A stretch of DNA of 64,000 nucleotides from Octopus vulgaris (Eukaryota). The position numbers and the translations under genes were made by a program. The first letter of the stretch is position 1, and the number at the start of each line of letters is the position of its first letter. Positions 1 through 47,679 of this stretch are shown here, piece by piece. The stretch spans positions 40,858,001-40,922,000 of the forward strand of contig OX597838.1 in assembly GCA_951406725.2 (NCBI GenBank). The letters are read 5' to 3'. The notes below the pieces were generated by a model. The model was not told where the DNA came from. It did no database searches and saw only the letters and a program-made list of their open reading frames with translations.

Positions 1-1668
1 GCAATATAATCGTTCTCTTCAGTTGGGTTATCTTGAAGCATTGCTGTGACTTCTGCCTCATAGACGACGGAGTTTATCATACACAACTCGTCAAGTGGGC
101 AAGCTTCAGTGTCTCGACAGTTACATGTGAGACTAGGCATTTCGTGATGCTTACGAGTAATGACGTCAAATGGGAGCAGCAGTGCTGCTCACTTGATTAT
201 AGACTAACATCCAGTCGTAAAACTTTAACAAACTTTAAAAAGTAAAAATGTTAATCTATAAGAATTAAGGCGGTGATCATAGTGAGGGGCTTAAAGCCTG
301 AGCACAGGTTCAACCAAAGTGAAGTAAAACTGAGAGCGTTCATGGATGATCTCAACATTATCAACGTTGCCAGAGACGTGTTGAATAGATTGTCTGAACT
401 GATCAGCTGGAGTCAGATCTTTTTCACTGAAGGGTGGATCGCTCGTGAATTTGGTTTGCAGCATCGGTGGAGAGCAAATACCAACTGTTCATGAGCAAGG
501 TGTCAAAAGTCTGGGAAGATGGTACAGTTTTCCCCTCACAGATAGACATCGTGGTATTGAACTGCAGAGACAAGGCTAAAGAGCATTGATCAAGCAACTT
601 TGCCAGAGAAGTTCAAGGTGTGATGCATGAATTTTGGGTTGCTCCCAAGACTGCTGTGGCCCATAGTTGTGTATGAAGTTTCTCAAACGAGGATCGAAAC
701 AATTGAACATAAGATCAATGAGATGGTAATGAAGTGGCTCCTCCTTTCGAAGTGCCTTTCATTCTTACGCCCTTTATGTCAACCAAGGTATGCTCCAGTT
801 TCCCAGATTCTGGTCTGAGTCAAGTGAACAAGAACAGCGGAAGCTACGTGAACAACAAGTAAGGCAACTGAAAGATGATAGGCATCTGGGTCACGCAGTG
901 CAACAAGCACATCAGGGTCGGTGGCTGAATTGGGATGATGTCGAAAAGCTGGAATTGAAGTGATCTGATTGGTGGCGGTTGAGTGCAGGGCATTTGAAAG
1001 CTCTGATCTGGACTGCATATGATGTGCATCCGTCTCCAGCAAATCTCAAAAAATGAGGTATCCAAGAGAGTCCACAGTGCCACATATGCGGGAAGTATGG
1101 CAGCCTCAAACACATGCTGTCAGCTTGCCCCAAAGCATTCCAGTCTGGATGGTATACATTTAGACATAATTTAGTGGTAAACGTTGTTGCTTCAGCTGCA
1201 AGACAGAGGCGAGTGCTTGAACTGAGAGCATTTGTGAAGCAAGGTGTGAGGCCAAAGAGGCAGAATCTTCAGCAGGCCAAAGACAGAAAATGGGATGTGT
1301 TTGTGGACAAGCCATAGCCTGAAAGCACTGTGGTGTCAGCACTCTGGCCCGACCTGGTTTTGGTAGATGAGGGTCAGAGACGTGTGGTCCTTGGAAAGCT
1401 GACTGTGCCATGGGAGGAGAGCATTGCTGAGGCCCATGAGCGGAAGCTTTTGGGCTATGAAGAGCTGGTAGCTGAGATTCGGGAGAAGGGTTACATCTGT
1501 GGGTTGGTTGCGTTCGAGTCTGGTTGTAACGCAGTACGTCCAACTGTTGTGGGCCCACAGTGTGGAGAGATACTGAGTATAATGGGCCGAAATCTCAGCG
1601 AAACACAGCGCTCAGCTGATGATTGCAACCGGACGAGAAATGGAGCACTCGATGTTTTTGTTCTACTG

Positions 1669-1670
<2 letters not shown>
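1..1670 (+). mobile_element. Decayed HERO-like (R2 superfamily, RLE-type) non-LTR retrotransposon: RT remnant, CCHC knuckle, RLE domain and structured 3' UTR
   Basis: Frameshifted pieces read LRAFMDDL (RT motif), FGLLPRLLWPIVVYEV, CHICGKYGSLKHMLSAC (CCHC) and PDLVLVDEGQRRVVLGKLTVPWEESIAEAHERK (PD..E/K RLE). Followed by a (TATG)n tract. Confidence 0.85.
1537..1635 (+). ncRNA. Hammerhead ribozyme, non-circularly permuted, intact
   Basis: Stem II GGCCCA(1552-57)/UGGGCC(1583-88); stem III GAGA-U(1567-71)/A-UCUC(1592-96); AUA site, cut after 1572; stem I CUGAGU(1573-78)/GCUCAG(1610-15); GAAA 1589-92; CUGAUGA 1616-22; closing helices CGUCC/GGACG and GUUGU/GCAAC. Confidence 0.8.
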
Positions 1671-2603: not shown

Positions 2604-3228
2604 CGCTTGTATATAAATATATATGAATATATAGTGCATATATGTACGTATATATGTGTGTGTATGTATATATAGATATATATTATTTATGTGTGGGGTG
2701 TGTAATATATATATGTATATATATGTATATTTCTGTATCAATATATATGTGTCTGTATACATGTATGCATGCATGTATGTGTATACGTGTATGTATGTGC
2801 GAATGTATGGATGCATGTATGTGTGCGCGTGTCTGTACAGCAGAAACTCACGATAGTGTCATGTGTGTGTGAATAAGAGAGGTCGCTTCACCGAGTCCTT
2901 AGAATAAGAGATGAGCAAGAGGGAGATCCGTGGATCACCTCTTTACACTGGGCTTTGTTGTTTTGCTTTCCAGTCAGCTCTGATCGAATTCTCACATATA
3001 ATCGAAGGGTTTTCAAGTAGTAACCATTACTCTCATTTTGTTTTCAGGAATATCTATAACATAATAGATATATTTATATATATGTGTGTGTGTGTGTGTG
3101 TGTAAATGTACAAATATTATGGATGTGTATATATATATATATATACACACACACAGAAAGCGAGCGAGAGAGAGAAGGAGAGAGAATGATGCAATTAAAC
3201 AAATAAAACTAGTTTGTTTGATGTACTG

Positions 3229-3259
3229 ATGGATGGACGGACTGACAGACAGACAGACG

Positions 3260-3335
<76 letters not shown>

Positions 3336-16345: not shown

Positions 16346-16674
16346 ATTAATCTACAGACACTGAGCTTCCGCAAAGCTTCTGTTTATCAAATTCCACTCG
16401 CGATGTCATATCGAGGCTATGATAAAAAAAAATACACTTAGCTAAAAAATACTGTAATATGAATTGGGATCGAACCAGAGACGACATGGTTCGCACTTGG
16501 GAAACAAACTTCTTAATTGCGTGTCCATACCAGCATCAAGTAAGCATAAATTAAAAGTTAGAGCTGATCATTAAGCGCCCCTGAGGAGACGCGAAACCTC
16601 GCACCCTCTGACGATGGCGTTCACGCCCTCTTAATGAGGCTCGTGCATCTCTACTCATTTGTAAATAAAGAACG

Positions 16675-16739
<65 letters not shown>

Positions 16740-46750: not shown

Positions 46751-47214
46751 CAACAGCAACAGCAAATAGTAATAACAAATAATACTAAATACCTGAAATA
46801 AAATCAAAACTAAAAAAACTTAAACAAGAACAATAAAATTCGCCAGACGTGTTTCTTGTGCGCAAAATGACATAAAAAACTTCATTTTAGATTAAGAAAA
46901 TAAAAATTACATCAAGATTTAGATTTATTTTTTAATGCAAAATTGTAAATTTAGTAACGTGAAGTTTTCAAAAGAAAAATAGGAAAAAAAGTAGCGTAAA
47001 AAAATGGAAATTTTTTTTTTTTTTTAATATAGAAATTATTTGAAAATTCATAATTATTTTGTCGTGGCATGACGTATTTTATTGTGAAGGTTTGACTCTC
47101 ATTAGCTTGGCCATTACATTGACGCCGTAAAATCTCTATTTTTAGATGTGTTACCATTTCTTTTCTCCAATTTTAACCAAACAAACAATGTTGTCTTGTT
47201 CTGTATGTTCCTAA

Positions 47215-47615
47215 TGTGAAGACGCAGGCTGGAAAGCGGAACATTTTCCTATCGAAGTCGGATGTAGAGGATTTGTAGGACACAGCGTGAGACGACTGTT
47301 GTTATCGTTAGGCCTAACTCATCGTAAGGTCAATACCACCATGACTGATATCCAATCTACAGTGGAGAAGGCTAGCCACTGGATTTGGTTAAAAAGAGAC
47401 GATGAGCGATGGCTAGAAGTATATTGAGTTCTTCATAACCAGCTGATCTAGCAAGCGGGGCCTCATATCAGTGAGGGGGGCCGGTGTGCATTGATGCCGT
47501 CGAGAGGTAGGCCCCGAAACGGCGCGCATTCTCTCCTGATGACCCCATACACTTGCTAGCTTCCGATATACGGAGCTTTTAACTGGTAGCACTTGCATGT
47601 GCAAGTTGTTTGCAA
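47215..47615 (+). mobile_element. 5'-truncated HERO-like retrotransposon 3' end: ORF C-terminus and 3' UTR
   Basis: 47215-47427 translates CEDAGWKAEHFPIEVGCRGFVGHSVRRLLLSLG...VEKASHWIWLKRDDERWLEVY*; EVGCRGF and ASxWxWLKR are typical of this RLE clade. Absent from the ORF track. Confidence 0.85.
47448..47559 (+). ncRNA. Hammerhead ribozyme, non-circularly permuted, intact
   Basis: Stem II GGGGCCU(47457-63)/AGGCCCC(47509-15); stem III GCCG-U(47496-500)/A-CGGC(47519-23); GUC site, cut after 47501; stem I GAGAG(47502-06)/CUCUC(47531-35); CUGAUGA 47536-42; closing CUAGCAAG/CUUGCUAG. Confidence 0.8.
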
Positions 47616-47679
47616 GATATATAACACTCTAAGTTTCGCTGTTGGAGCGGGGTGATGCAAAAATAAAATATCTCTTGCA

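Follow-up and report, generated by a model that had tools for sequence, protein, structure and literature searches.

A four-piece hammerhead-like motif in the tails of HERO-like retrotransposons and a possible circular RNA intermediate

The window, by which we mean the whole stretch of 64,000 nucleotides of Octopus vulgaris DNA that was analyzed, carries tails of two retrotransposon families, A and B. The tail of the family A copy could be parsed into the strands of a hammerhead-like motif, and its features, together with the family B tail, are as follows.

47213..47624, + strand: copy, truncated at its 5' end, of family A, a young HERO-like RLE non-LTR retrotransposon
47213..47427, + strand: end of the ORF (endonuclease C-terminus, WLEVY*), with the stop codon at 47425-27
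47448, + strand: start of the closing strand, 20 nt after the stop
47448..47460, + strand: 5' strand of helix X (47448-55 pairs with 47552-59, and 47457-60 with 47543-46)
47461..47476, + strand: hairpin Y, predicted arm of a four-way junction (from covariation and the tail parse)
47477..47482, + strand: strand P, the 5' strand of stem II (G10.1 = 47477), pairing with 47510-15
47483..47489, + strand: 5' strand of helix Z, pairing with 47524-30 and linking stems I and II at their outer ends
47496..47506, + strand: block S, with a stem III strand, the GUC triplet (47499-47501) and a stem I strand; predicted cut between 47501 and 47502
47510..47523, + strand: block G, with the 3' strand of stem II, GAAA (47516-19) and a stem III strand
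47524..47542, + strand: 3' strand of helix Z, a stem I strand (47531-35) and the core CUGAUGA (47536-42)
47543..47559, + strand: 3' strand of helix X, beginning right behind A9
47558..47624, + strand: the 3' end with its terminal hairpins (47558-77 and 47591-606); most copies terminate 114-125 nt beyond the cut
1517..1670, + strand: tail of a second, older family (B), in the order X-Y-P-Z-S-G-Z'-C-X' with different letters; predicted cut 1572/1573

The full unit of family A, recovered from long copies, measures 3738 nt and contains an intact ORF of ~1110 aa. The three components that characterize a HERO element were found together in this single ORF, the motifs partly by eye: a reverse transcriptase (RT; RVT_1, 5e-19), and a CCHC motif and a restriction-like endonuclease that were both read by eye, the endonuclease giving no Pfam match. 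Among solved structures, the best matches of the protein were R2 proteins. Its RT motifs agree by eye with the HERO-2_DR and HERO-1_BF reference rows; one RT stretch is identical to HERO-2_DR at ~31 of 52 positions, a comparison made by eye and without a tree including the references, and a GCTIS motif, likewise read by eye, is common to family A and the HERO rows, whereas the CRE row differs there. Fish relatives stand at 37-40%. HERO insertion is described in PMC4640811 as mostly non-specific or into microsatellites, and the flanks of 98 family A copies, varied and often TA-rich, fit the HERO criterion of no fixed target or a microsatellite preference. One copy (L202) has a target-site duplication of ~21-26 bp on both sides. 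Judged from its copies, family A is a young family; a first look yielded 2641 candidates, of which the best 40 stood at 99-100%, and the 23-mer immediately 3' of the predicted cut has 574 exact matches. Words like GGAAAGAC are repeated in the 5' UTR, about five times in family A (L067, about 3090-3260) and one to three times in the relatives L109, L136, L138 and L151, possibly as an internal promoter or a protein-binding signal.

The family B copy (window 1-1670) has a broken ORF, the end of which was taken away by a ~170 bp deletion at ~1517, and point changes in helix X. A third motif-like remnant lies at 16547-16640, with GAAA, CUGACGA and an 8-bp closing helix; it seems to be without the middle strands and is followed by a GTT repeat, and a DNA search with 16530-16675 returned only itself.

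The first-pass annotation had placed a permuted hammerhead-like motif ~20 nt past the WLEVY stop, with a copy near 1537, and most of what it described is present: all of the letters that it gave, with the stop at 47425-27 and the closing strand from 47448, the GUC cut triplet at 47499-47501, GAAA, CUGAUGA, the closing helix, stems I (47502-06/47531-35) and III (47496-99/47520-23), the hairpins at 47558-77 and 47591-606, and, in the family B tail, the same strand order in different letters. The strands run in the order P, S, G, C, giving a complete hammerhead core in a non-circular order. This parse was suggested by family B: there, the motif's 5' end is the partner of the strand behind CUGAUGA, and the stem II strand is preceded by a hairpin.

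An alignment of four sequences (the window copy and three close relatives) supported the revised fold, with 97.9% of positions paired and 9 of 25 pairs compensatory, helix Z not being counted. Within this alignment, stem II as 47477-82/47510-15 was 95.8% paired with three compensatory pairs, and 47457-60/47543-46 was 100% paired, also with three. The earlier register of stem II, 47457-63/47509-15, was rejected at 67.9% paired and no compensatory pair. The hairpin at 47461-76 had been noted as overlapping stem II; it does exist, but it does not compete with stem II, because 47457-60 pairs with 47543-46 and stem II uses 47477-82. The minimum-energy fold of 47440-47565 reproduced the nested part of the structure (X, Y, Z and III) and drew part of strand P into an alternative helix; therefore, the RNA may misfold. 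Plain folding of 47428-47620 gave no signal (z -0.21), and Rfam returned nothing relevant at the gathering and E<=10 thresholds; the pseudoknotted order escapes it.

A metagenome scan yielded 74 loci, of which 32 without an ORF end were excluded beforehand and 42 (44 tails) were kept. The motif was found in 34 of these 42 loci (28 by script and six by eye). A strict descriptor recovered the same strand order in 30 of 44 tails, from 28 of 42 loci, compared to 5 of 930 shuffles; the shuffles left the core words in place, and a shuffle was counted only if its interaction helix reached 4 bp or more, as is the case in 28 of the 30 parsed tails. The strand order exceeds chance. A complete motif was absent in 8 of the 42 loci: L096, L097 and L132 end at most 105 nt past the stop, the tails of L131 and L143 measure 184 and 324 nt, and in L098, L100 and L102 no motif was found across the 470-900 nt examined after the stop. 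These last three, which are HERO-like, represent either motif loss or damaged copies.

In a MAFFT alignment of 26 tails, stems I-III were 95.2% paired, with 12 of 13 pairs compensatory, compared to 31-43% for slid controls; the 5' edge of this alignment was set by our own parse, which favors stem II, and stems I and III were anchored on invariant core letters. The core positions C3-A9, G12-A15.1 and U16.1-H17 were present in all 26 tails, and G10.1-C11.1 in 24 of them. By contrast, the stem II of the published type SGC, formed by the strand after CUGANGA, was rejected: it stood at the chance level of 37.5% paired, and only 0-2 bp are possible after A9 in all 31 parsed tails. In 14 of the 31 parsed tails, helix X and hairpin Y together take up exactly the space between A9 and G10.1; Y is missing in five, and both X and Y vary or disappear while the core letters stay constant. 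Helix Z, the predicted interaction between the outer ends of stems I and II, reaches at least 4 bp in 29 of 31. Covariation thus shows helix X, and usually hairpin Y, to be inserted between A9 and G10.1 as a predicted four-way junction. The core is retained among element proteins that are only 27-52% identical, and in a C-terminal protein tree (36 rows, midpoint-rooted without an outgroup, and so unable to date the motif) it occurs in all main branches. Collectively, these sequence comparisons indicate that the four-piece motif is real and deeply conserved.

The pattern of substitutions points to catalysis. CUGANGA with C3-G8 is found in 24 of 26 tails, and the remaining two (L126 and L133) carry U3-A8, probably through a single event; the change from C3-G8 to U3-A8 is a reported natural swap (PMC3088659). 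The cut triplets of the 26 tails were GUC in 12, GUU in eight, GUA in five and AUA in one, and position 17 was never G, also in six tails read by eye outside the script filter. The swap and the avoidance of G at position 17 look like catalytic constraints. The core letters and the covarying stems I, II and III of a hammerhead were found, whereas its usual spacing was not: known hammerheads have no more than 1-2 nt between CUGANGA and its stems (PMC10085705). The inserted junction of the four-piece motif exceeds this limit between A9 and 10.1. One extra nucleotide between A9 and G10.1 is reportedly tolerated in a viroid hammerhead, and the literature searched contained no passage on insertions at A9/10.1. 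Overall, the tail RNA is probably an active self-cleaving hammerhead.

The 5' ends of genomic copies bear on the same question. At eight distinct loci, the copy begins precisely where the cut is predicted; seven of them came from a search in which matches with the normal upstream letters had been filtered out, and the eighth is L214. The background is ~0.2 starts per position per 98 copies, or ~1.3 in 574 before the upstream-letter filter, an estimate resting on 98 copies from three contigs. Among those 98 copies, four start at -122 compared to two at the cut. In a set of 30 family A copies, one (L214 itself) starts at the cut, others starting at +17, +21, +26, -8 and -12, and in family B none of 30 copies starts at the predicted cut. 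As a sign of cleavage, the copies that start at the cut are therefore only suggestive. The -122 position (window about 47380), just past a short palindrome, forms a 5'-start hotspot of its own, which also includes L264 and the second lap of L178.

Sequence past the cut had been presumed to be retrotransposed, and this was borne out by 96 of 98 family A copies that span the cut; none of 30 ended there. The 3' ends are clustered at 114-125 nt beyond the cut; 4 of 98 copies are shorter exceptions. At seven distinct loci, the copy continues across a fixed head-to-tail junction and enters another tail; six of the seven also cross the upstream cut, and in six long loci two motifs lie exactly one unit (3738 nt) apart. 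None of the 98 copies starts between -3601 and -3750, the interval holding the junction and the upstream cut, and 3 of 98 run past both. Furthermore, eight metagenome tails lead into the start of another ORF. From the spanning copies and the head-to-tail laps, we conclude that the template has no fixed 5' end. One sequencing run, guessed to be RNA, contained a closed 1283-nt contig through the junction and the cut, corresponding to an internally deleted unit, and the same deletion recurs among assembled contigs of two more runs of the study; assemblers can close repeats, and such contigs are incapable of showing ends. Tandem arrays, uncut multimers or template jumps could likewise give rise to the closed contigs and the head-to-tail copies.

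Several internally deleted derivatives retain the 5' UTR and the tail (L246 and L254; runs X1-X3, L067 3918 to 6402; X5 and X7, 3830 to 2663) and are candidate non-autonomous partners. One copy (L294, G000:C29:26431674-26432099) contains three tandem repeats of a ~157 bp segment that ends at the GAAA core.

Starting from what is observed, namely the strand order, the stem II made with upstream strand P, the X/Y junction, the Z link and the two-motif long copies, we infer a cycle that we hold to be about as probable as its negation: the tail would cleave itself behind 47501, and a head-to-tail copy cut twice in this way would free an RNA of unit length, to be circularized and reverse-transcribed. 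Transcription through a head-to-tail copy would give two cuts one unit apart, and the 5'-OH and cyclic-phosphate ends of the monomer would be joined by a host ligase, as in retrozymes, whose monomers are circularized by RtcB (PMC7229834). The element RT would then prime ~120 nt past the cut and copy across the sealed site. Most copies would stop early and so span the cut; rare copies would lap the circle and rebuild the two-ribozyme master, and cut RNA that escaped ligation would yield 120-nt copies beginning at the cut. By analogy, a cycle of the retrozyme type may be the simplest account of the copy structure, and the head-to-tail copies offer an answer, in place of gating, to how the sequence behind the cut is copied.

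The alternative that survives best, although we consider it unlikely, is that the ribozyme is active but slow, that copies derive from uncut read-through of tandem loci and that cutting limits or times retrotransposition or trims upstream RNA, with no circle. Published SGC ribozymes cleave at 0.007-0.19 per min (PMC10085705), an alternative nested fold exists and 96 of 98 copies span the cut, all of which would suit a slow enzyme. This reading gives no clear reason, however, for keeping the core across such divergent proteins (27-52% identity), and no pile-up of copies at a fixed 5' start is seen.

It is rather less likely that the motif is a hammerhead-derived fold that is recognized by the protein of the element and does not cut, the strand after CUGANGA being tied up in helix X. 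The helix directly after A9 is real, the SGC-type stem II pairs only at chance (37.5%) and nearly all copies span the cut. Against this, strand P supplies stem II, with G-C at 10.1/11.1 in 24 of 26 tails; the swap of C3-G8 for U3-A8 and the non-G rule at 17 resemble those of a working ribozyme, X and Y vary or vanish around a core that stays, and eight copies begin at the cut.

R2 enzymes are capable of template jumping. By this route, the RNA might be cut and its pieces stay paired while the RT jumps the nick, and head-to-tail copies would then stem from jumps of the RT from the end of one linear RNA onto the end of another; the cut is bridged by helices X, II, Z and III, and second-lap lengths resemble ordinary truncation lengths. 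All seven loci that reach the junction cross it, however, and none begins there, so that near-perfect jumping would be needed at two sites, and we give this reading a low probability. Finally, the first-pass suggestion that the hairpin at 47461-76 or the terminating ribosome switches cleavage off is highly improbable: although 47457-63 is able to pair with 47509-15 in the window copy and helix X of L115 overlaps the stop codon, this pairing lacks conservation, the hairpin fits within the conserved fold, filling the junction exactly in 14 of 31 tails and being absent in five, and the distance from stop to cut is not conserved, with 37-198 nt in parsed tails and the core ~600-700 nt past the stop in L145 and L156 (overall, about 40 to 700 nt), which makes ribosome gating unlikely.

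Among known ribozymes, the closest counterpart of the motif is type SGC (HRIMA-1; Eckert et al. 2023, PMC10085705), with which it shares the order S-G-C and the full core, a short linker from the stem I strand to the stem II strand, and an extra helix (here Z) that connects stems I and II at their outer ends. In type SGC as set out in that paper, block C is unbroken and the stem II strand follows CUGANGA, whereas in the HERO motif block C is split, with the stem II strand at the front, so that there are four blocks and a four-way junction. The HERO motif would thus work like SGC, but we do not class it as SGC because its block C is not intact. PMC10085705 derives type-SGC RNAs from metatranscriptomes and reports none in known organisms' genomes other than one bacterial GCS candidate. 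No report of a four-piece hammerhead form was found in the literature searched, a search whose coverage excluded most subscription papers and Repbase Reports. As far as the literature searched can tell, the four-piece form is a variant not previously described, which would function like type SGC. If so, the published three-block rule for hammerheads would no longer hold, in that the CUGANGA block would tolerate being split by an entire junction, and animal genomes would contain thousands of copies of non-circularly permuted ribozymes.

For the HERO clade (HERO-2_DR, HERO-1_BF), the literature searched described no ribozyme, head-to-tail structure or circular intermediate. Our furthest-reaching reading, which we put forward tentatively and with slightly less than even confidence, is that HERO elements are autonomous LINEs that may travel as ribozyme-made circular RNAs by means of an undescribed hammerhead architecture that lies outside the six permutations thought possible and has a four-way junction between A9 and G10.1. 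If true, a whole clade of protein-coding LINEs gains a self-processing RNA and possibly a circular intermediate, which would oppose the usual view of priming at the 3' end of a linear RNA; the form of the template matters because RLE elements are in development as gene-insertion tools.

Retrozymes (PMC7229834) likewise repeat their ribozyme one unit apart in head-to-tail copies, and the release and circularization proposed here follow theirs. Unlike the HERO motif, the ribozymes of retrozymes and Penelope-like elements are classical type I/III or minimal hammerheads. Retrozymes, moreover, encode no protein, whereas the HERO-like element is autonomous, with its ORF of ~1110 aa and restriction-like endonuclease; Penelope-like elements carry their ribozymes one unit apart, as here, but differ in their RT and in having a GIY-YIG nuclease. 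R2 and other non-LTR elements resemble the HERO-like element in combining an RLE-type single ORF with a self-cleaving RNA, predicted in our case, that processes a read-through transcript. The R2-type ribozymes are HDV-like, lie at the 5' end and are not duplicated, whereas the HERO motif, of hammerhead form, follows the stop codon, and copying takes in the sequence to either side of its cut.
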